Assembly (NCBI GenBank): GCA_030264375.1
Contig: JASCQW010000162.1
Coordinates: forward strand, 19,201,546-19,265,545
Direction: 5' to 3'
From: Carcharhinus longimanus
Lineage: Eukaryota
DNA length: 64,000 bases
The position numbers were made by a program, and so were the translations under genes. Position 1 is the stretch's first letter. Every line of letters starts with the position of its first letter. Under the pieces are notes generated by a model, which was not told where the DNA came from, searched no databases, and saw nothing but the letters and a program-made list of their open reading frames with translations. Positions 1,623 through 64,000 of this stretch are shown here, in pieces.

Positions 1623-1860
1623 TTAAAAGAAATGCGTTATGATTCCGCAAAGAAAAAATAAAGTGCAATTGGAGGGGGGAGGGGGAAAATTCATGTTAAA
1701 GAAATGCATGATGTGCAGAGAAAAAATAAAGTACAACTGGTGAGGGGGGGAATGCATGTTAAAGAAATGCATGATGTGCAGAGTAAAAATAAAGTACAAC
1801 TGGAGAAGTATGTTAAAGAGATGCATTCTGATGTGCAGAGAAAGAAAATACAAACCGGGT
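1623..1860. repeat. Minisatellite, ~4 degenerate copies of a ~58-65 bp unit
   Basis: The unit ATGTTAAAGAAATGCATGATGTGCAGAGAAAAAATAAAGTACAACTGG recurs at ~1623, ~1692, ~1756 and ~1810. Confidence 0.85.
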
Positions 1861-3398: not shown

Positions 3399-6300
3399 AT
3401 GGCGAGTCCGCCTGAGCCCAGCTCGCCGAGCGCCGACAGCTNNNNNNNNNNACAGCTTCTCGGACGTGCGGAAGGTGGGCTACCTGCGAAAGCCCAAGAG
3501 CATGCACCGGCGCTTCTTCGTGCTGCGGGCGGCCAGCGAGCTGGGTCCGGCCCGTCTCGAGTACTACGAGAACGAGAAGAAATGGAGGCACAAGGCGGGC
3601 GCTCCCAAGCGCTCGGTGCAGCTGGAGAGCTGCTTCAACATCAACAAGCGGGCCGACTCCAAGAACAAGCACCTGGTGGCCCTCTACACCCGCGACGAGT
3701 ACTTCGCCGTGGCGGCCGAGTGCGAGAGCGAGCAGGAGGGCTGGTACCAGGCGCTGCTGGAGCTGCACAACCGCGNNNNNNNNNNNNNNNNNNNNNNNNN
3801 NNNNNNNNNNNNNNNNNNNNNNNNNNNNNNNNNNNNNNNNNNNNNNNNNNNNNNNNNNNNNNNNNNNNNNNNNNNNNNNNNNNNNNNNNNNNNNNNNNNN
3901 NNNNNNNNNNNNNNNNNNNNNNNNNNNNNNNNNNNNNNNNNNNNNNNNNNNNNNNNNNNNNNNNNNNNNNNNNNNNNNNNNNNNNNNNNNNNNNNNNNNN
4001 NNNNNNNNNNNNNNNNNNNNNNNNNNNNNNNNNNNNNNNNNNNNNNNNNNNNNNNNNNNNNNNNNNNNNNNNNNNNNNNNNNNNNNNNNNNNNNNNNNNN
4101 NNNNNNNNNNNNNNNNNNNNNNNNNNNNNNNNNNNNNNNNNNNNNNNNNNNNNNNNNNNNNNNNNNNNNNNNNNNNNNNNNNNNNNNNNNNNNNNNNNNN
4201 NNNNNNNNNNNNNNNNNNNNNNNNNNNNNNNNNNNNNNNNNNNNNNNNNNNNNNNNNNNNNNNNNNNNNNNNNNNNNNNNNNNNNNNNNNNNNNNNNNNN
4301 NNNNNNNNNNNNNNNNNNNNNNNNNNNNNNNNNNNNNNNNNNNNNNNNNNNNNNNNNNNNNNNNNNNNNNNNNNNNNNNNNNNNNNNNNNNNNNNNNNNN
4401 NNNNNNNNNNNNNNNNNNNNNNNNNNNNNNNNNNNNNNNNNNNNNNNNNNNNNNNNNNNNNNNNNNNNNNNNNNNNNNNNNNNNNNNNNNNNNNNNNNNN
4501 NNNNNNNNNNNNNNNNNNNNNNNNNNNNNNNNNNNNNNNNNNNNNNNNNNNNGGGGAGGCGGTGGAGGAGGAGGAGGAGGAAGCGGCGGCTGCCGCCTGC
4601 ACCCGCCCCTCAATCACAGCCGCTCCATCCCCATGCCGTCCACACACTGCTCGCCGTCGGCCACCAGCCCCGTCAGCTTGTCCTCCAGCAGCACCAGCGG
4701 CCACGGATCCACCTCGGACAGCCTGTTCCCCCGCCGCTCCAGCGCCTCCATCTCCGGCTCCCCCAGTGACGGGGGCTTCATCTCCTCGGACGAGTATGGA
4801 TCCAGCCCTTGTGATTTCAGGAATTCCTTCAGAAGTGTCACTCCAGATTCCTTGGGGCACACTCCTCCAGCAAGGGAGGAACAGGAGTTAAATAATTACA
4901 TCTACATGGGCAAACACTCGAGCCTGGCTCCCAATTGTCAGAACAGGGGAACTCAAAGGTGGACCCCTACTAAAGCTGAAGATGCAGACTCAGATAAAGG
5001 GTTCAGGAAGCGAGCTCATTCATCAGGTACTTCGCCACCCACAGTGATGCACCAAAAGACGCCATCTCAAACTTCCACTGCCTCCTTTGAGGAGTACACA
5101 GAGATGACACCCTCTTACCCCAGCAACCGTCTGTCGTCCAGTAAAAATTCTGCTTTTGTACCTACACGTTCGTACCCCGAGGAGTGTTTGGATCTGCAAA
5201 TTGGGGAAGGCAGGCGTTACAGCCAAATGGATGATGGTTATATGCCCATGTCACCTGGAGTAGCCCCTGTGCCCAGTAAAAATGACTACATGCCAATGAG
5301 CCCTAAAAGTGTTTCTGCCCCCCAGCAGATTATTAACCCGCGCCAGCACTCTCGAAAAGATGGTTATATGATGATGTCACCCAGTGGCAGTTGCTCACCA
5401 GAAAATGTGAATTATGGAAAAATATGGACTAATGGAGGGAATTCTAAGCTGTCTGTTGAGAGCAATGATGGGAAATTGTCCTGTAGCGATTATATAAATA
5501 TGTCCCCTGCAAGTTGCTCAACAACAAGCACTCCACCAGACTGCTTCTTCAATCCAGTTGAAGAACCTCATAAACCTGTTTGTTCGTACTTCTCATTGCC
5601 TCGCTCCTTTAAACATGTACATAGAAAAAATGATGAGTCCCCTTTACGAATTGCTGTAAATTCAGGCCGCCTCTTGTATGGTGAGGATTCTTCTTCATCC
5701 ACAAGCAGCGATAGTTTAGGAGGACAGGATGGCGGGCATCATACAGTTAACCCCGTTAAAAAAGAATTGTATGTACCAATGAAAGGTAAACTTGTGCGGC
5801 CCACTAGGCTATCACTTGATAATACTAAGGCAAGTACGCTGCCCAGAACACGAGAGCATCCCCTTCCTCCAGAGCCAAAAAGCCCAGGCGAATATGTAAA
5901 TATTGAATTCAATGACAAAACCTTTTCTTCTAGTTCATTGTCTCTTGTTGAGTCCTCTTCAGTTGGAGGCATTCATCCTGTTCAACAAAGGCCACCCATG
6001 TCTGAATACATGAATATGAATTTAAGAATAGATGCATCCAAGTTTGGCTATGTATCAAAACCCACAGTGGACATCACCAGCTCTGCAACTGCCTGCAAAT
6101 CCAGCACTTGCAGAAAAGATAGAGGGCAGTCGAGCTGTGATTATGTTAGTATGCAGCTAGTTACCACCTGCCCAGACTTACTGGATTCATCAGTGAGTAA
6201 CTATACGGAAATGACAGTTGGTGGAGGTATAACGTCTTCCATTTCCGTTCTACCTCGGGCAGAAGAGAGCTCTTTGAGCACTGTTTCTGATGTTGTGACT

Positions 6301-6752
6301 GGTCCAATGATCGACCAGATCCCTGGGAGGAGTGCCTTTACCGTGCTTAATCTTGTCCCCAATCGGAACCAAGGTGCCAAAGTTATCCGTGTTGATCCTC
6401 AAGGAAGAAGAAGACATAGTTCAGAGACTTTCACTTCCACAGCCAATGTGACTGGCATGACATTATCTTATGTTGATCACATTAAACGACAAACCAGGAG
6501 AGTCTCTGGCTTCAAGTGCCAAAGACCAGCCAAATGATGCCACAGTGCAGAAAAATGATTGTGAAAATGGTATGAATTATATCGATTTGGACTTGGTAAA
6601 TGATTTTAATAACAAAGACTGGACCTCCTCTCAGCATGTAACCGCTCATCAACCTCATGGAAGTACTTCTGGTGGTGATGATGATCTGAATTCATATGCA
6701 AGCATTACCTTCCAGAAGCCAGATGAAATCAGTAAGCCTACAGAAAGGGAAG
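3399..6752 (+). CDS. IRS1: Insulin receptor substrate 1, coding exon 1 (10-N gap shifts the frame at 3442-3451; PTB domain lies in the N gap 3776-4552; +1 frameshift at ~6490)
   Basis: ATG 3399 is in a strong Kozak context (ACGATGG) and begins MASPPE. The PH domain FSDVRKVGYLRKPKSMHRRFFVLRAASE...WYQALLELHNR is nearly identical to mammalian IRS1. Further IRS1 hallmarks are RLHPPLNHSRSIPMP...GSPSDGGFISSDEYGSSP, PI3K motifs YMPM/YMPM/YMMM, the Grb2 motif PKSPGEYVNIEF and RRRHSSETF. The +1 frame continues with NYIDLDL and YASITFQK (SHP2 motifs). Donor AG|GTAAGG lies at 6752/6753. Confidence 0.97.
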
Positions 6753-7359
6753 GTAAGGACACAGATCAAAATGCTAATAGTCATTTTGCTAATATTTTAC
6801 TTCACAAATAATGTTTTGTTCCTTATCTAGCATTCAGAATTCCATGTTTCGCCCATTCTATATGTGAGGACACACATATTTATGGTAGAATTTTAGCTGC
6901 TGAAGTTGCTTTATTACCCAAAATTTGTGATTTCTTGTAAAAATTTGAAAACTTGATTGAATAATTAATGAAATTAAGTTTGTTGAAAATGTAGAATTTT
7001 CAGATAACCATACAGAGTATCTAAAGCTTTACTTACAGTTTTAGTAAGATCACCCCTTGTCCAATCTTTGAAAGTTTGCGCAGTTTCATTTGAATGGATG
7101 AGCCTAGTTGGAGGTTGTATTTCATCATCGTCGGCATCCTTTCTTCTATGTAAGACGTGCAAGCATCAGACTCAATTGGGGTTGGGGCATAGTAGCTTCG
7201 TATGGTGCACTTTTGCTAATGGCTGAAGATCCCTATGGGGCTGGTCCTGCCACAAGTGCCACATCAAATGGTTATCAGGTGCTGCTGTGGGCTGTTTTTG
7301 GTGTTCACACCGGATATTAAGCCACTGTAGCCACAAGTCATCATGGTGACCCATGCCGG

Positions 7360-7755
7360 CCCACAGGTGATGTCGCTATTTTCCTCTTGTTAGCTAGCAT
7401 CTCCCAAGTATGGGAATAAATGTTTAGGGCCTTCATGTCACACTTGGAGGCATCCTTGAGGAAGAGCTTTGAGTGTCCTACTGGCTCCAGTTACCTTACC
7501 GTATATAAAATCCTGCGGCTGTGCAGCTATCTTCAATCTTGCAAACTGCTTAAGGCGTGAAGTTGTCTTTGCTTAGTGAGTGCCAACATACTTGGGAGGT
7601 TTGCCTTTGAGGGGATAGCCACATTTATGATTTTGTCCTACTGTGGGATGTCCAGAATGTGCTGCAAGCAGCAAAGGTGAAAGCTGTTGAGCTTCCTTTC
7701 TTGATAGCTGTACATTGCCCATGCTTCAAAGCCATATAACAAGGTGTTAGGTTGT
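7360..7755 (-). mobile_element. RTE-clade LINE fragment, decayed
   Basis: The minus strand translates to KLNSFHLCCLQHILDI...DKIIN and FLKDASKCDMKALNI, resembling the RTE C-terminal motifs LNAFHLRCLRRIL and RFKDVCKRDMK. Confidence 0.6.
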
Positions 7756-7838
7756 ATTTACATTATATATAGAAAAGGTTAAATATATTTTTTTGAAAAC
7801 TCATCTTGATGATGATTTATTGAATTTCAGTATTCTGT

Positions 7839-8950
7839 TATAGAGTCATAGTTGTACAGTGCAGAAAAGGCCCTTTGGCCCATTGCAGCTACATTGACAA
7901 CTACCACTGAAGTCGTGCTAATCCCATTTTCCAACACTTGTCCCATATCCTTGAATGTTATGATATTTCAAGTGCTCATCCAAATACTTTTTAAAGGTTG
8001 AAAGGTTTCTCGCCTTGACTATCTTCCTAGGCAGCGCATTCCAGATCTCACCACACTCCTGAGTGAAAACGTTTTTCCTCAAATCCCTTCTGAATCTCCT
8101 GCCCCTCTAAAACTATGCCCCTCGTTATTCACCTTTCAAATAAGGAAACAGCTGCTTTCTATTCACCCTATCCATGCTCCTGAAGCTTATACACCTCAAA
8201 CGTGTCCCCCTCAGTCTACTCTGCTCTTAAAAAAAATCCAAGTGTATCCAGCTCTCCTATAGCTCAAATGCTCCATCACAGGCAACATCCTGTACCTCCC
8301 CTAGTGTAGTCACATCCTTCCTATAGTGAAGTGATCAGAACTGCTCACAGCCCCAACATAACCTCCTTGTTCTTATACTCTGTTCCACGACTGATGAAAA
8401 CAAGTGTTCAGTAAGCTGTCTTAACTATCGTGTTCACCTGCTTCATGGACCTGTACCCTAAGGTCCATCTGTTCCCCTGAGCTTCCAAGTGTCCTGCCAT
8501 TCGTTAAGTACTCCCTTGTCTTGTTACTACTTCTAAGGTGCACCATCTTGCACTATTAGGGTTAAATACCATCTGCCACTGCTCTTCCCATCTCTACCTC
8601 CTGTAACCTATAACCTCCTTTACTATTAACCACCCTACCAATCTTGGTGTCATCTACAAACTTATCTATCATTTCCCCCCACATTCTCATCCTATGTCAA
8701 ACAGCTTAAGATTTTCACGCTCTTTTTCTGAATCCTGCACCTGTGTTCTCCTTTTCCTGAGTGAAGACCAATGAGATGGATTCGTTTAACACCCTTCCAA
8801 TGCCCTGTGGCTTCACACACACATTGCCTCCTTGGTCTTTAATGGGCCCAACTCTTTCCTTGGTTAACCTCTTCCCTTTCAATATACTTATAGAATATCT
8901 TGGCATTCTCCCTCGTCTTGTTCCCAAGTGCTTTTTCATGGTTAGGCCAT
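7839..8950 (-). mobile_element. CR1-clade LINE, 3' part of ORF2 and tail, decayed
   Basis: Tail TAGAGTCATAG...GGCCCTTTGGCCC. ORF2 remnants include FFTQ-like and IKDQGGNVCVKPQGIGRVLNE..VFTQE segments. Confidence 0.75.
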
Positions 8951-11900
8951 CTAATTCTTGTGTGGAAGTAAAGCAGTTTTCCAAATAACAATTCTGTGGG
9001 ATACGTTTCTCCCAAGATCTGAGATTTGAATTTTTTGTACAAATTCTGCCTCCTCAACTGAGCCGGAGAAACTTGAGCTTCGGGAATTGGTTGTTTTGGT
9101 TGAAGGAATTGTTTTGCATTTGAGAATATGCATTTTCCAGTCTGATCTGTCAGTGGAATTTTTAGTCCTCAGCAAGAGTTGGTTTAGGACCAGTCAATTC
9201 CAATGAGAGTTGCTATTTTGGCATCCCGGCGTGAAAAGGGAACAGCATTATATTAAGGACCAATGTCCTTGACTTATCAATTCAGCTTCATGATCAGAAC
9301 TATGGAGTTTATAAGGAGTTTATAAAAGATTTTGATAATTAGAAAGCAAGACCTGGTAGTTCCAATCGTCACTCCCTGTGACTTGGCAGGAACACAGTGG
9401 AGCCTTGTAGGTTTCCTTGTATCATACTTATAAAAGTAGTGAAATGTCTGCAATATTTATTAAATATTTTGGAGAAATTCATGGAGCCACTGAGCTGCCT
9501 TCATGGTTTGGCAGACTGTTATTTCACCACAAACACACGTCACCTAACCTTTTTGACAACTGAAGCAACATTATTGTAGCAAAATAAGTTGCCTGTTTGT
9601 TCAGCAAATGTGAATTAAGATGTTTCCCAAATCCATACATTTCTCAATGCAACAAATCAAGGGGAGCGTAGGCTTCAAGAATATATCATTGAAAACATGA
9701 TTCGGGGCACAGTTGAAGTTCTTATAGAGTAAATCATATCTTTTGGAGAGATTTCAAAGGATATGTTTGGAATCTGAAGAGTACTGATATTGATGTTTGT
9801 GGAACGTAGCCTACATTTAATGAGGNNNNATTGTTATTTGTGAAGAAGGAAACACAAGTGAATTTTTCAGCACAGCATGATACAGCTAGTATGAAGAGGT
9901 GCTGGGGGAGAAAGAATGAGCCAACTTGTGCATTAAATAAAGGCCTCGTACCAGGAAATTACAATGGGGTGTGTGTGTGTGGGCATCTGAATAGAGGATA
10001 TGGAAAGAAGGAACAAATCCACAAATATCCAGTCCTTTGCTACACTTAAATCTTTTAATATAAATGTTTATTCTGAAAGGTAATAGGCAGAAAATGCGCT
10101 AATGTAAATATTACTACTTTTCTGATCAAGTTAATCCCCAGCACGTGCATGTCAAGTTGGAAAGGGGCTGCCATATGTGGATGGTTAATGTCATCCTGTC
10201 ATTTGCTTCGGTTTTTTTTGTCTGCAAATACTGGATTTTCGCTGGTCATGCTGCAGAAATTATGCATTCAAACTGCTACTGTCTACTGGTAAATAATAGA
10301 TCAAAGATATGATTGTGATGCCCTGTAATTGTCACTTCCACAGGTAGGTATGAACTAAAAATATTGTTGAGGGGTTGGTGAGCAAAGAAACATACATGTG
10401 ACTTGTACATTAAACAGTGACCTGTTGGTGATTGGTAAAAATGCATGTGAAGAGGTCAGTACCATAAAATATGCAAACTGTAGATTGCGTTGCATCAGAG
10501 AAAGACACTGATTGTGTTTATTTTTTTGATGGCCTTATTGTTTAACCTTGCATGAAAGGTATTTCACTCTTAGAATTTTGAAACTTTAATTAAGATCATT
10601 TATCATTTTTGGACATGGAAATCGTGTATGTCAAAGCATTCTGCAGAAGTTTCCAAACTGGGTCTGAAGCAATAGAACCAGACCTGTAAAGCAGGAGTTA
10701 AATAATTATAGCTGAGTATAAAGTATATAGTTTTCTTCAAGATCAAGTGTGTGATTACAGTCCCATTTGTTTTCAGTAAGTGTTCTAAGTTAAAAAGACC
10801 ACATGTATTGCATAAATTATGCTGTTGATATAAGGATTGCCTGCAGATGAAACAAATAAAAAAACCTACATAACTGTTTTAGGCAAAAACAACTAATATC
10901 TCAGCGGTAAGAATTTTACATATTTTTAAGTATTCTGAGAATTTGGCCGTCGTCTGAGAAGTACCTGTAATTATAATTGTAGAACAAGGCTTCAGTTTGC
11001 TTGTTTAAAATTAGGAGATTGAAGGTAATAGGGATTATTGTTTGAAAATTTACAAGAAAATAATCCCCATTTACACTTCCCTTTTTTTACCCTGAAAATG
11101 ATTTGTTTAAAGGACATCTGTTGTGTTCACTGGATTCGTATTTATGAGAATCAGTTTGTTTTATATACTGGTATGCATTATAACAGTCCAACAAACTTCT
11201 TTCATGAATATTGGTTGCATTAGTGGTCGGTGATTCCCTTTATTATGTGGATTTGCTTTATAGAAAAATTATGGAGAAATTGTAGTCCTCAAATAAATGC
11301 AAATGTAGCAGACTTTGCCATTTTGTTACTAAAGGAACCTTGTTTGTACACGTGTAGGCTTGTTTGTTAATGCAAGATTGCTAACATCAATATAGTTAGA
11401 TCTTCATTTTGCATCTTCATGGAGGATGTAATTTTGTTTTGTCAACAAAATGTTTTCAGATGAGAAAAACCTGTTACACCTTTTCTGCTCACTATTAATG
11501 CTGTTTGGGCATCTTATCCTCACAAAACCCAAGTGCTATTTGATAGGCAAATCTGCATTCCTGAAATTATCTGAATTCTTTGAGGACATGACTTTAATTT
11601 GAAGGAGGGGGTTGAATTTAAGGAGTGGTTACTGCATGTAACAGGAGTACTCTTTGTGTGATTGCATAGTATCTTTACAATAGTTGCCTCTTTTTATCTT
11701 TCTCCTCTCCAGTGTACCAAACCCCCCACCGCTTACACAATTTCAAAATATGGATTAAATTTTTTTTTAGTAAATGCAATTGTGTTTGAATATAACATTC
11801 TGTTGCTGAAATCTCAGTGCAAGCATAAATACCTAACCTTCCAATGATTTTAAACTTCTCCAGACTTAAGATAATTGGATTATTTGTGGAGTGTTAGTAA

Positions 11901-16685: not shown

Positions 16686-16964
16686 GCGGTGGCACAGTGG
16701 TTAGCACTGCTGCCTCACAGCACTAGGGACCAAAATTCAATTCCTGGCTCGAGTCACTGTCTATGTGAAGCCTGCATGTTCTCCCTGTCTGTGTGGGTTT
16801 CTTTCCTGGGTGCTTCTCCTCTCCTAACCAGCACTCCGAATGATGTGCTGGTTAGGTGCGTTAGCCATACTAAATTCTCCCTTAGTGTACCCGAACGGGC
16901 GCCGGAGTATGGCAACCAGGGGATTTTCATGATAACTTCATTGCAATGTTAATGTAAGTTTTAT
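16686..16964 (+). mobile_element. tRNA-derived V-SINE, tail type B
   Basis: A box TGGCACAGTGGTTAGCAC, V-domain TGCATGTTCTCCCTGTCTGTGTGGGTTTC and tail GGATTTTCATGATAACTTCATTGCAATGTTAATGTAAG. Confidence 0.8.
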
Positions 16965-25544: not shown

Positions 25545-26060
25545 AGTCACCTGCATTGTTGAGGGTCTGAAGTCACATGCAGGCCAGATCAGGTAAGAAG
25601 GACAAATTTCTTTCCCTAAAGGACTTTAGTGAACCAGATGGGTTTTTTACAATAATCAACTGCCGGGATGACACAGTAGTTAGCACTACCTCTCAACGCC
25701 AGGGACCCAGGTTTGATTCCTGGCTTGGGTCACTGTCTGTACGAAGTCTGCATGTTCTCCCCATGTCTGCATGGGTTTCCTCCCACAGTCCAAAAGATGT
25801 GCGGGTTAGATGTGCTAGCCACGCTAAATTCTCCTTCAGGGTACTTGAACAGGTGCTGGAGTGCGGCAACTGGGGAATTTTCACAGTAACTTCATTGCAG
25901 TGATAATGTAAGCCCATTTGTGACTCTAATAAATAAACTTAAGCAATAGTTTCAAATTCCAGATTTTTGGCTCTGGTGGAATTTAAACCAGGGTACAGAC
26001 AGTATTACTCTGGGTCTCTAGATTGCTACTGTAGTGACAATATCACTATTCACCACCTCC
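25545..26060 (-). mobile_element. Older tRNA-derived SINE (same family as 44135-44472), split by a V-SINE
   Basis: GTCACATGCAGGCCAGATCAGGTAAG...TCCCTAAAGGACTTTAGTGAACCAGATGGGTTTTT matches 44245-44320. The head remnant follows 25945. Confidence 0.6.
25664..25940 (+). mobile_element. tRNA-derived V-SINE, tail type B
   Basis: ACACAGTAGTTAGCAC...GGTTTGATTCC (A and B boxes), a V-domain, and tail TTTTCACAGTAACTTCATTGCAGTGATAATGTAAG...AATAAATAAAC. Confidence 0.85.
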
Positions 26061-29711: not shown

Positions 29712-30023
29712 AATTCCTGCAGTGTAGTGCAGAAGGAGGCTATTTAGTCCATCGAGTCCACACTGACTTTCTGAAAGTGCGTATTACCCAAGCTCCCCCC
29801 CCCGCCACTCATCCTATCCCTGTAATCCTGCACATTTAGTGTGGTTGACGCTAAGGGCCAATTTACCTAGCATACACATCTTTGGATTGTGGGAGGAAAC
29901 TGGAGCACCTGGAGGAAACTCATGCAGGCATGGGGAGAATTCGCAAATTCAGACAGTCACTCAAGGCTGGAACTGAATCCAGATCCCTGGCTGTGCCTGG
30001 CAGCAGTGCTGGCCACTGTGCCA
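29712..30023 (-). mobile_element. HE1-like V-SINE
   Basis: Reverse-complemented V-domain (GGGAGGAAACTGGAGCACCTGGAGGAAAC), a CR1-type tail, and a tRNA-like head ending ...CCACTGTGCC. Confidence 0.8.
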
Positions 30024-31802: not shown

Positions 31803-33910
31803 TCATTGGATGTGGGTGTCACTGGAAAGGCCACAATTTATTGCCCCACACCTAATTGCCCTTGAGAAAATTGTGATGTGTTGTCGTCTTGAACTACTTC
31901 AATGTGTGCTTTGAAGGTTCTTCCGCTATATTGTTAGCTAGAGAATTCCAGGATTTTGACTCAGTGACAAAGAAGGAACTATGTTTCCAAGCCAGGATTG
32001 TGCATGGATTGAAGGTAGTAATGGTGTTCCCATGCCCCAGCTTTCCTTCTCTTTCTAGCTGGTGGTACAGGTCACAGGTTTAGGTGTGCTGTTGAAGAAT
32101 CCTTGACTAATTGCTGAATTGCATCTTGCAGTTCGTATACATGGCTGCCATTTTGTCCTGGTGTTGGACCAGTTGGTGATGAGGTAAGTTGCTTTGGCCT
32201 GGATGATGTCAAAGCTTCTTGAGTGTTGTTGGAATTGCACAAATCCAGACAAGTACAGAGTATTTTATTGCATTCTTGATTTGTACTGAGTAGATGGTGG
32301 AATACCCAGTTTCTGACCAGCTCTTGGTAGACAGAAATATTTAAATGGCTGGTCTCGTTAAATTTCTGGTTACTCTCCATTTCTCTCTAGGATGTTAATG
32401 ATCGGGGTTTAAATACAGAACATCAAAGGGAGTAGGTTAGAATTTCTCCTGTTGGAGATAGTCATTGCCTGGCACTTCTGTAGTACAAATGTAACTTTTC
32501 ATTTGAGTTCATACGTAAGTGTTGTTCAGACCCTCCTGCATTTGGGATGAAACATAAGATGAGCTCCTTCAGTATGCGAGAAGTTGTGAAAGGAATGGGA
32601 CACTGCAATCATTAATGAGTAGTGAACTTCTATCTGTACAATGGAATGAAGAACATTGGTGAAATAGCTGAAGATGTTTGGGCCCAGAAACTAGCCTACG
32701 GAACTCCTGCAGTGATGTCTGAGGCAGAGAGATAATTAGCCCCTCAACACCTACTATTATCTTTGTTTCTGCTATGTAAGTGCAGAGTTTTCTCCTGATT
32801 TGTAATGATAAATGGGGTGGCATGGAAGCACGGTGCTTAGCACTGTTGCTTCACAGCTCCAGGGACCTGGGTTCGATTCGCGGCTTGGGTTGCCGTCTGT
32901 GTGGAGTTTGCACATTCTCCTCGTGTCTGCNNNNNNNNNNNNNNNNNNNNNNNNNNNNNNNNNNNNNNNNNNNNNNNNNNNNNNNNNNNNNNNNNNNNNN
33001 NNNNNNNNNNNNNNNNNNNNNNNNNNNNNNNNNNNNNNNNNNNNNNNNNNNNNNNNNNNNNNNNATGTAGGGATATGGTGGGGAGTGGGGGGGGGTACGC
33101 GGTTAGATTGTATTTGGTGCAGACTCTCTGGGCCAAATGACCTCTTTCTGCACTATAGGGTTTCTATGATTCTATGACTTATTAGGTCCAATGCCTGATG
33201 TTGAGGGCAGTCACTCTCACTTCATTGCTGGGATTCAGCTTTGTTGTACATGTTTGGACCAAGCTGCAATGAGATCTGGAGCCAAGTAGTCCTGGCAGAA
33301 ACTAAATTGAGATTAGTTTAAATTGAGATTTGTTTGCAAGTTATTGTTGACTAAGTGCCATTTGACAACACTGATGACACCTTTCTTCACTTGTTGATTG
33401 AGTGTAGGCTGATGCTGGGGTAATTGGTTGGGTTGGATGTGTCCCAATTTTTGTGGATGGGTTACACCGGAACAATTTTCCTTATTGTTTGGATTACTGT
33501 TGTTATAGCTGTACTAGGACAACATGGCTAGAGACATGGCTACTTCTGGAGCACAAGTCCTCAACATACAGCTGATGTGTTGTCAGGGCTCATAGTCTTT
33601 GTTGTATTAGGTGTGCTGTACTGTTCCTTGATGACATAATGTGTGAATCGACTGGCTGAAGATGGGCCTCGAGAAGAGACTGAGATGTATCATCCACTCG
33701 GCAACTCTGGCTGTGAATCATTATATAAAATACAGCCTTGTCTGATGCACTATTACTGTGTTTTAGCATTGTTTAAGGTGGGCATGTCTGTAAAACGCTG
33801 GCTCCTGTTTATACATCACCATTCATGCCTGGATGTGGCAAGACCCCAGAGCTTTGATCTGAAATGATGATTATGGGATTGCTTAGTTCTACCTAAAGCA
33901 TGCTATTCTG
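31803..33910 (-). mobile_element. Decayed non-LTR LINE (CR1/L2 group) with a nested SINE
   Basis: The tail shares TTTATTGCCC...AATTGCCCTTGAGAA with 44135-44200 and 55860-55950. RT remnants resemble ITAGVP.GSVLGPNIFSCFINDL (32620-32720). Confidence 0.6.
32814..33178 (+). mobile_element. HE1-like V-SINE
   Basis: GCACGGTGCTTAGCAC...GGGTTCGATTC (Pol III A and B boxes), a V-domain, and tail CTGCACTATAGGGTTTCTATGATTCTATGA. Confidence 0.85.
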
Positions 33911-35071: not shown

Positions 35072-35191
35072 TCACCTGATGAAGGAGCTGTGCTCTGAAA
35101 GCTTGTGATTCCAAATAAACCTGTTGGATTTTAGCCTGATGTTGAGACTCTTACTGTGCCCATCCCAGTCCAAAGCCGGCTTCTCCATATC
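35072..35191 (+). mobile_element. Penelope-like short repeat (family 1) carrying a minimal hammerhead ribozyme motif at 35072-35108
   Basis: TCAC-CTGATGA-A-GGAGC-TGT-GCTCT-GAAA-GC-TT-GTGA, followed by CCAAATAAACCTGTTGG...CCAGTCCAA. The same family occurs at 53760-54008 and 55383-55583. Confidence 0.7.
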
Positions 35192-38306: not shown

Positions 38307-38648
38307 GAATCATAGGAACTCTACAGTGCAGAAAGAGGCCTTTTGGCCCATCGAGTCTGCACCGACCGCAATCCCACCCAGGCCCTACCTCCATATCCCT
38401 ACATATTTACCCCCTAATCCCTCTAATCTATGCATCTCAATACACTAAGGGGCAATTTTAGCATGGCCAATCAAACTAACCTGCACATCTTTGGACTGAG
38501 AGAGGAAACTGGAGCACCTAGAGGAAACCCATGCAGGCATGAGGAGAATGTGCAAACTTCACACAGAGTGTGACTCAAGCTGGGAATCGAACCCAGGTCC
38601 CCGGAGCTGTGAAGCAGCGGTGCTAACCAGTGTGCTGCTGTGCCACCC
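38307..38648 (-). mobile_element. HE1-like V-SINE inserted into the Gypsy protease region
   Basis: Full head, V-domain and tail. CACTTA occurs on both sides as a probable target-site duplication. Confidence 0.85.
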
Positions 38649-42871: not shown

Positions 42872-43101
42872 TTAAAGTTTTTAAGTTTATTTATTAGTGT
42901 CACAAGTAGACTTACATTAACATTGCAATGAAATTACTGTGAAAAACCCCTAGTCTTTTGGACAGTGGAAAGAAACTGGAGCATCCGGATAAACCCATGA
43001 AGACACGGGGAAAATGTGCAGACTCCACACTGATCCAATTCAGGAATCGAACCTGGGTCCCTGACACTGTGAGGCAGCAGTGCTAATCACTATGCCACTG
43101 T
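42872..43101 (-). mobile_element. V-SINE, tail type B
   Basis: TTTATTATTAGTGTCACAAGTAGACTTACATTAACATTGCAATGAA...GGAATCGAACC...GCTAATCACTATGCC. Confidence 0.8.
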
Positions 43102-52636: not shown

Positions 52637-52948
52637 AGATTAGAATCATAGTCTCATCTGCACTGTAGGGATTTTTTTCGGCTCATCGAGCCTGTACTGA
52701 CAACAATTCCACCCAGGCCCTATCCCCATAACCCCATTTATTTATCCCAGTAATCTCCCTGACACTAAGGGGCAATTTAGCATGGCCAATCAACCTAACA
52801 CTGTGACGTGGGAGGAAACTGGAGCACCCAGAGGAAACCACATAAACACAGGAGAATGTGCAAACTTCACACAGACAGTGACCTGAGACCAGAATTGAAC
52901 CCAGGTTCTTGCGCTCTGAAGCAGCAACGCTAATCACTGAGCCACCCA
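52637..52948 (-). mobile_element. HE1-like V-SINE
   Basis: Head, V-domain and tail are present. The tail segment TCTGCACTGTAGGGATT is locally inverted. Confidence 0.8.
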
Positions 52949-53426: not shown

Positions 53427-53735
53427 TAAAAGTTTAAAGTTTAAGTTTATTTATTGGTCACAAGTAGAAATATATTAACACTGCAATGAAGTTACTGTGA
53501 AAACCCCCTCGTTGCCACACTACGGCGCTGGTTTGGGTACACTCGGAGAATTTGGCATGGTCAGTTCAGCTAACCTGCACATCTTTGGGCTGTGGGAGGA
53601 AACCACAGCACCTGGAGGAAACCCATGCAGACACAAGAAGAATGTGCAAACTCCACACAGACAGTGACCCGACCCGGGAATCGAACCCAGGTCCCTGGAG
53701 CTGTGAAGCAACAGTTCTAACCACTGTGCTGCCAA
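53427..53735 (-). mobile_element. V-SINE, tail type B
   Basis: AACACTGCAATGAAGTTACTGTGAAAACCCC...GGGAATCGAACCCAGGTCCC...TAACCACTGTGC. Confidence 0.85.
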
Positions 53736-53759
53736 GCCACCCCACAGTATCGACAATGT

Positions 53760-54008
53760 GAGAGGAGAGGTACATTATTTGTACCTTTAAGACTTGATTA
53801 GCTGTAAAGACTTGCATTCCAACCATTACCTTGTAAATTAAGTTTGTGTCTGTATATGCTCTGGTTGTGAACACAAGCCTTCACTCACCTGATGAAGAAG
53901 CAGTGCGCCGAAAGCTTGTGCTGCCAAATAAACCTGATGGACTTTAACCTGCTATTGTAAGACTTCTTACTGTGTTTATTCCAGTCCAACGCCAGCATCT
54001 CCACATCA
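53760..54008 (+). mobile_element. Penelope-like repeat (family 1), longer copy, with a hammerhead motif at 53885-53920
   Basis: TCAC-CTGATGA-A-GAAGC-AGT-GCGCC-GAAA-GC-TT-GTG, then CCAAATAAACCTG...CCAGTCCAACGCCAGCATCTCCACATC. Confidence 0.65.
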
Positions 54009-55382: not shown

Positions 55383-55583
55383 TAAGACATCTCACAACAC
55401 TAGGTCAAAGTCCAATAGGTTTATTTGGTAGAACAAGCTTTCAGAGTGTCACTCCTTCTTCAAGTGAGTTTTCAGGTGACACTCCGAATGCTTGTGCTAC
55501 CAAATAAACCTGTTGGACTTTAACCTGGTGATGTGAGGCTTCTTACTATGCCCACCCCAGTCCAATGCCAGCATCTCCACTTC
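55383..55583. mobile_element. Penelope-like repeat (family 1) in an inverted (fold-back) configuration
   Basis: 55383-55467 is the reverse complement of the family-1 unit, including a hammerhead-like motif. 55476-55583 is a forward, 5'-truncated copy. Confidence 0.75.
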
Positions 55584-55779
55584 ATTTTACAGTAGGGCAG
55601 ACCGTGGACTTTTGACAGAATCATGGCTCAGTTAAGGACTATAAATGGCCAGTCAATGGCCCCCTAAGGGCCTTTCCCCACCCAGTCTCTATTTTTGATG
55701 GTGGGAAATAGGAAAAGTTCTCACGCTTGGGCTGGAAGGCGGAGGGGGGGCTTAACTGGCAGGCCCCTTCCAACTGGGG

Positions 55780-63624: not shown

Positions 63625-63629
63625 AATGA
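63625..63629 (+). CDS. IRS1: IRS1 exon 2 coding bases (complete the final Glu codon and the TGA stop)
   Basis: Exon 1 ends ...AGG GAA G| and exon 2 begins |AA TGA, giving a C-terminus of ...KPTEREE*. Confidence 0.8.
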
Positions 63630-64000
63630 CATCTCCTTAATCCTCGGCAAGCTTTGCACGGACTTGATGAGTACCTAGGCTTTCAATAATTTGTACAGTA
63701 CAACTAGGACCTCATGCTCTTTCACATAAAGAATGGTACGACAGATCAAAATCACTCCAGTTAGCTGCAAAAAAACCTCAGGACATAATTTTCTGACTGG
63801 ATTGCATTTTCGCCCATGTATATGTCAGTGAGGTGCACAGTGTGCGCTGCGACACATGCACTACAGCGAATCTGCCTTTCTTCCCTCATCAGCACATTCT
63901 ACTTCAACAATCTCCGTAAACAGAAATGGAAAGACTGCCAGCAATGCAATTCAGATGCCTAACCTGGACTGGAAACACACAAGCATTAACCTTGACTTTC
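63630..64000 (+). other. IRS1: IRS1 exon 2, 3'UTR (continues beyond the window)
   Basis: Non-repetitive sequence after the acceptor. It contains CAACTAGGACCTCAT and ATGGTACGA, blocks I recall from the proximal 3'UTR of mammalian IRS1. Confidence 0.8.

Follow-up and report, generated by a model that had tools for sequence, protein, structure and literature searches.

The window analysed here, a stretch of 64,000 nt from the genome of Carcharhinus longimanus, carries at its start a long open reading frame (ORF) whose N-terminal domain is that of IRS1 (match to PDB entry 1qqg, E 2e-59). The coding part of exon 1 is followed by a very long intron, which holds three insertions of one element, and by the start of exon 2. 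A minimal hammerhead ribozyme motif forms the head of the first insertion. The features of the window are the following.

3399 to 6752, plus strand: coding part of IRS1 exon 1, from the ORF, the PDB match and the contig joins
6753 to 63624, plus strand: IRS1 intron, 56,872 nt, GT..AG, containing all three element insertions
35072 to 35191, plus strand: 5'-truncated fragment of a Penelope-like element, with hammerhead, leader and pseudo-LTR tail and no ORF remnant
35072 to 35108, plus strand: minimal type I hammerhead motif, with a helix I of 4 bp, a helix II of 5 bp and AGCU instead of helix III
35114 to 35119, plus strand: AATAAA hexamer of the leader, 10 nt past the predicted cleavage site, a possible polyadenylation signal
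35157 to 35191, plus strand: terminal tail of about 35 nt, which only part of the copies possess
53772 to 54008, plus strand: another fragment of this element, longer than the first, with part of the 3'UTR, hammerhead, leader and tail
53885 to 53921, plus strand: second hammerhead motif, core letters intact, 3 of 5 pairs in helix II and 3 of 4 in helix I
55383 to 55469, minus strand: third insertion, inverted tail-less piece with a broken hammerhead core
55481 to 55588, plus strand: third insertion, sense piece truncated inside the hammerhead, the other half of the inverted pair
63625 to 64000, plus strand: start of IRS1 exon 2, which completes the last codon, with the stop at 63627-63629 and then 3'UTR
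53607-53744, 38513-38648, 32813-32930, 52823-52942, 25672-25783, 16692-16801, 42991-43095 and 29904-30021: pieces of a SINE-size repeat
24116-24289/26435-26615, 32558-32715/33933-34085 and 60082-60249/62401-62562: local two-copy repeats

The limits of the intron are given by contigs from sequencing runs. In three of four runs (X1, X15 and X2, from three studies, the RNA nature of the runs being guessed or not on record) the contigs depart from the genome at 6752 and rejoin single-site sequence at 63625, and the contig of run X16, which is DNA-like, reads through into the intron. In contigs of three runs, from three studies, exon 1 is directly followed by exon 2; the IRS1 intron is therefore spliced, which leaves room for its partial cleavage. 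The 56.9-kb intron interrupts the last codon, and the stop codon lies in exon 2. In the human gene, the entire coding region lies within exon 1.

In the assembled sequence, the reading frame of IRS1 shifts and meets a stop at 6537, the remainder of the expected C-terminus being encoded in a different frame that runs up to the splice site. At 6489-6491, contigs of three runs contain about 35 letters that the window lacks, and coverage by the DNA-like run X16 is interrupted at 6484-6524. The discrepancy is most likely an assembly deletion and not a real frameshift. Upstream of IRS1, a GC-rich region at 2446-2571 consists of G-rich and C-rich runs flanking a gap, and its Rfam matches to miRNA families, far below threshold, are due to chance. 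The SINE-size repeat, which is dispersed and not related to the element, is present in the window as at least nine pieces that are 72-89% alike, and the local two-copy repeats of the intron measure 150-180 nt, are 78-86% alike and stand in direct or inverted orientation.

A preliminary description of the window had placed a sense-strand, dimer-type minimal hammerhead ribozyme (min-HHR) of type I topology within the IRS1 intron, and both the sequence and the mapped intron confirm that placement; an antisense or intergenic position is ruled out. The core at 35072-35108 comprises CUGAUGA (C3-A9), GAAA (G12-A15.1) and a UH box in type I order, with all catalytic nucleotides kept, while helix I is formed by 4 bp (UCAC/GUGA). 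One extra nucleotide after A9, A35083, is also an A in 89 of 91 aligned family copies, and GAAA is followed by GC, U16.1 and U17 (35104), so that the palindrome AGCU at 35100-35103 stands where helix III would be. All of this reads as had been claimed. Helix II does form its five pairs (GGAGC/GCUCU around a UGU loop), but its closing pair is a G10.1-U11.1 wobble produced by a CpG-type change, instead of the conserved G10.1-C11.1. The scissile bond is predicted to be 35104/35105, and the copy lacks the stable helix III that enables cleavage as a monomer.

Folding models treat the motif unevenly across contexts. The minimum-energy structure of the 37-nt piece holds helices I and II (-8.9 kcal/mol), and in a 146-nt context the model predicts the hammerhead fold as the structure of minimum energy; in a 237-nt context, the helix probability is 0.04-0.05. 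The 37-nt fold is not better than that of shuffled sequences (z -1.15, with 27 of 200 as good), and the folding z-scores are significant neither for this copy nor for an intact copy of the family. Likewise, a loose core pattern occurs in the 64-kb window at the level of chance (3 matches against 1.93 expected), and a scan of the window with Rfam returned no hammerhead family at E<=10, all 10 matches lying far below gathering scores. The significance of the motif therefore comes from its family and not from the single locus.

The family is very large. A strict pattern of the intact motif has 2,545 exact matches genome-wide (reversed control 0), a pattern of the short-helix class has 4,621 (control 1) and a pattern of the tail has 20,840 (control 0), the first two counts ruling out a chance motif. 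Sixty stretches of 10 kb (600 kb) at arbitrary positions contained 37 pieces, about one per 16 kb, which would extrapolate from these 600 kb to some 1.6 x 10^5 pieces genome-wide. With a 136-nt query, 2,196 candidates came up at first look across the 2.68-Gb genome, of which 40 were scored, and a 63-aa piece from the endonuclease end gave 20,891 candidates. Read depth over the repeat is about 74,000 times that of the flank in DNA-like runs, a figure to be taken as an order-of-magnitude hint and not as a copy number. The element comprises tens of thousands of copies, and the preliminary description had not recognised the motif as part of it.

The motif stands at the head of a 120-nt repeat, 35072-35191, which is the end of the pseudo-LTR (pLTR) of the element; likeness to the second copy extends to 35191 (82% over 123 nt). 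The layout of the parent element is best seen in the long copy L068, chosen among eight longer stretches in which copies read broken or partly unreadable. Here, the hammerhead and leader lie at 4720-4593 on the minus strand, upstream of broken frames for reverse transcriptase (RT), thumb, linker and YIGET, and the full order is a copy of the 3'UTR, hammerhead, leader, RT, thumb, the linker CHSNLCKTC (CX4CxxC) and YIGET. The tail reaches up to the apparent ORF start in this copy. At 1700-1730 (minus) the 3' end of L068 stops within hammerhead helix II, and its 5' repeat is without G12; this near-complete element is a copy dead at both ends.

An RT followed by a GIY-YIG endonuclease at the C-terminus is indicated by the order and motifs of L068 and L067, and several other copies run upstream into reading-frame fragments with GIY-YIG-endonuclease-like ends. 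The RT piece of L067, one of three pieces, has a weak RVT_1 match in Pfam (E 0.0023, below the cut-off), while Pfam gave nothing for two L068 pieces or for the C-terminal endonuclease piece, and a PDB sequence search with a 343-aa piece gave no match. In the Atlas, the C-terminal piece resembles clusters that carry HTH_animal and GIY-YIG families (score 0.96). As Pfam and PDB are otherwise empty, the identification as a Penelope-like element (PLE) rests on motifs, architecture, the one weak RVT_1 match and Atlas. A tblastn search of the 64-kb window found no PLE ORF remnant, and inspection by eye showed no target-site duplication at the borders of the 35072 copy. Twelve of the 37 pieces in the sixty stretches, which were placed at round-number positions, occur in inverted pairs, and the 3' ends of copies form two groups about 35 nt apart in a sample that includes tail-anchored loci. 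Inverted pairs and the two 3'-end groups match the anatomy of PLE insertions described in PMC8557442, and the 35072 copy is therefore read as the 5'-truncated end of a Neptune/Nematis-type PLE, the type to which the element belongs as judged by its motifs and architecture.

The leader carries AATAAA in sense orientation, at 35114-35119 and again at 53927-53932, followed by a GU-rich stretch, and many of the copies without a tail end about 35 nt past it. This hexamer may be the polyadenylation signal of the element. It is well kept in the family, yet no better than the adjacent leader positions.

Two levels have to be kept apart in judging whether the ribozyme matters, namely the active elements and the copies they leave behind. 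Among active elements, a helix II that changes in a compensatory manner between subfamilies suggests that the fold was likely kept under selection. The pair 10.2-11.2 is G-C in 18, A-U in 9 and other in 3 of 30 loci of the short-helix class; among 100 motifs listed, it was counted by eye as G-C in 74, A-U in 20, G-U in 4 and mismatched in 2. These G-C/A-U changes are inherited by subfamily and represent few events, not independent ones. In other subfamilies, the sequence of helix II is different and its pairing is retained. At least three further subfamilies with distinct helix II and a common leader were observed (L196-L225; L062, L066, L036), having a helix II of 4 bp with loops of 3-4 nt, or an extended form that may contain a bulge. 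The short-helix class seems richer in retained CpGs and may be younger.

Inserted copies, on the other hand, likely decay like neutral DNA. Among 113 motif-spanning pieces, taken from 197 not picked for the motif and including 3 window pieces, the core is broken in 62 and a helix or the palindrome in 27, while 14 are intact with G-C and 10 intact with G-U; the state of the 35072 copy, with all catalytic nucleotides and both helices, is therefore shared by 24 of the 113. A check for core conservation beyond background among copies, as set in the preliminary description, gave no significant excess: 32 of 724 non-CpG core cells (4.4%) deviate from the commonest base against 185 of 3,099 cells (6.0%) in the leader, a slight trend towards a better-kept core (p=0.11; 81 of 91 rows, the 10 rows of minor subfamilies being dropped).

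The CpG formed by C11.1 and G12 offers a further view of this decay. G12 is the general base of the hammerhead, and the CA state removes it. Genome-wide, the CG state, with the G10.1-C11.1 pair, is the commonest (3,158), followed by TG (2,508) and CA (2,054), and among 91 aligned copies TG and CA number 26 and 25. The loss of G12 is genome-wide rarer than that of C11.1 (ratio 0.82, binomial p 2e-11), which could reflect a slight protection of G12. CpG mutation rates depend on sequence context, and we would attribute the ratio to differences of this kind.

Compared with the commonest base of 23 same-subtype copies, many of them retrieved through similarity to it, the 35072 copy differs in 16 columns. 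Three of these lie within the motif, one of them in the loop and the other two, C11.1 to U (35096) and C17 to U (35104), being CpG transitions. G10.1-C11.1 is highly conserved in min-HHRs according to PMC4209133, and U17 is described as unfavourable in PMC1636495. Most loci of the short-helix subfamily (23 of 30) have U17, which by itself is therefore no sign of inactivity.

A related organism (run X19, flank divergence about 3%) also carries the 35072 insertion, and its orthologous contig shows at most one difference within 35072-35099 (28 nt), against 41 differing letters over the 1,438 nt, almost all flank, that two contigs cover. Such near-identity is expected under neutrality, and it neither shows nor excludes constraint. 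Purging of sense copies was approached through the strand skew of the flanks, which is +0.015 +/- 0.019 around 59 intact-type copies against +0.106 in the IRS1 intron (18 bins), a rough proxy that assumes other introns to be skewed like this one and draws its loci from one contig. The flank skew being near zero relative to that of the intron, there is no sign of purged sense copies.

Taken together, we consider it highly probable that the 35072 motif is the min-HHR of a PLE pseudo-LTR, and that this 120-nt truncated copy is decaying neutrally and does not cut IRS1 RNA. According to a published model, the min-HHRs of two pLTRs act as a dimer in processing PLE RNA (PMC4209133). In an active element, two repeats on one transcript would accordingly form a dimeric ribozyme and process the retroelement RNA. 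Reverse transcription would begin at the tail, copy through the hammerhead and stop just 5' of helix I, the halted reaction leaving the 120-nt fragment as a by-product; methyl-CpG deamination would afterwards have turned C11.1 and C17 into U. As integrated copies span the scissile bond, their templates were presumably uncut or religated there.

Among the other readings, the one that survives best holds that the 35072 copy is a weak ribozyme which occasionally cleaves the intron of IRS1 after pairing in trans with some other RNA of the abundant family and leaves the host largely or wholly unaffected, and this we regard as unlikely. Every catalytic nucleotide is present, and family sequences occur in contigs of the runs X15 and X6, which are probably RNA; the unique intron flanks around 35072 are uncovered in these two runs, which have no bearing either way on the locus itself. 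According to PMC4209133, single min-HHRs showed no detectable cleavage in vitro, while tandem (dimeric and trimeric) constructs were cleaved at a low level. The modelled complex of two 35072 copies is also more stable than two monomers (-23.7 against -17.8 kcal/mol), though it forms by swapping helices I and II and not through helix III. Against trans-cutting stand the intermolecular helix III itself, an AGCU duplex of just 4 bp and about -2.5 kcal/mol in the model, the closing G-U that departs from G10.1-C11.1, and the unfavourable U17; moreover, even the constructs with an engineered helix III were cleaved mostly at non-physiological Mg2+ (PMC4209133). A wider form of the idea, in which thousands of intact intronic min-HHRs, the 35072 copy included, dimerise in trans with family RNA and nick pre-mRNAs such as that of IRS1, appears decidedly improbable. 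If true, it would amount to a retroelement-derived, concentration-dependent cleavage network.

Very little credit can be given to the reading in which any effect on IRS1 arises not from the ribozyme but from the leader, with AATAAA and the GU-rich stretch serving as a cryptic intronic polyadenylation site. Both hexamers, at 35114 and 53927, are in sense orientation and well kept in the family, and polyadenylation within the intron would alter the IRS1 C-terminus because the stop codon is in exon 2. However, the hexamer is no better conserved than its neighbouring leader positions, and the strand-skew proxy gives no purge of sense copies.

The second sense copy had been presented as a partner for the first, and part of that account stands: it lies in the same intron and the same orientation, with intact core letters and AGCU. 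Its helix II, however, is broken by adjacent A-C and A-G mismatches beside the closing pair, and in the folding model it adopts no hammerhead fold. The two copies are 18.8 kb apart, and AGCT tetramers number 229 in the IRS1 intron. With a piece roughly every 16 kb, chance alone would place two sense copies in 57 kb. A dimer of the two copies, joined through AGCU and cleaving the intron as it is transcribed, is left unsupported by the broken helix II and missing fold of the partner, and the distance, the weak duplex, the in vitro results for min-HHRs and the lack of a significant excess of core conservation also speak against it. That the pair would assemble into a dimeric hammerhead on a single IRS1 pre-mRNA and cleave its intron as a regulatory device of the host, a reading favoured by two sense copies with AGCU and core letters in one intron and by an insertion common to a related organism, is extremely unlikely given the mismatched and distant partner, a spacing expected by chance, a core without significant conservation among copies and an intron that is spliced in the contigs of three runs, partial cleavage being still compatible with the last point.

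The evidence thus points away from an intronic copy that cuts IRS1 pre-mRNA, which, if true, would be a case in which a signalling gene of a vertebrate is acted on by a dimer-type ribozyme. On the preferred reading, that of a neutrally decaying PLE remnant, the single locus has little weight, as one retroelement tail among tens of thousands. The family offers natural variants, with a covarying helix II and hundreds to thousands of copies per subfamily, which are useful for studying the role of minimal hammerheads in Penelope-like transposition and are of modest value in this regard. No report of PLE hammerheads in a shark genome was found in the literature on Penelope/Neptune hammerheads, Repbase, where the family may be catalogued, being outside the search; the supplementary files of PMC4209133 covered by the search name no shark taxon, and no literature was found on an intronic hammerhead ribozyme in IRS1.

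The closest known systems are the min-HHRs in the pLTRs of metazoan PLEs, described by Cervera and De la Pena in 2014 (PMC4209133). The 35072 motif belongs to this class and is most likely inert in its present position; as read from the letters, its testable features agree with those of min-HHRs save for the decayed closing pair. Shared with that class are the type I topology, the 4-bp helix I, the extra nucleotide between 9 and 10.1, G10.1-C11.1 as the commonest state in the family, and the palindromic 15.2-16.2 without loop 3, as well as the location in pLTRs, the mostly dispersed single copies, the pairs on opposite strands and the existence of several consensus families with compensatory changes. 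Differences concern the host, here a cartilaginous fish, the G-U at 10.1-11.1 of the 35072 copy, and helix II, which measures 4-5 bp in this family against 7-8 bp in Schistosoma; the counts exceed the 4,000-9,000 of coelacanth and Xenopus only when the pattern classes are summed.

At the level of the whole element, the RT, the CX2-5CxxC linker and the GIY-YIG domain are shared with Neptune/Nematis-type PLEs that have a C-terminal endonuclease, as are the pLTR, the 5' truncation, the adjacent inverted copy and the tail of 30-40 bp (PMC8557442). Non-LTR retrozymes are likewise HHR-bearing, non-coding repeats derived from PLEs; such repeats have been described in one chondrichthyan, and about 43% of the Xenopus copies are intronic (bioRxiv 10.64898/2026.07.22.740005). 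Retrozymes, however, are built of tandem units (mean 363 bp in the chondrichthyan, same source), and a tandem retrozyme is ruled out in the window, where the copies are solitary or in inverted pairs and form no head-to-tail units. Unlike retrozymes, the window copies are solitary truncation products of 120-237 nt, left by an element that bears ORFs.
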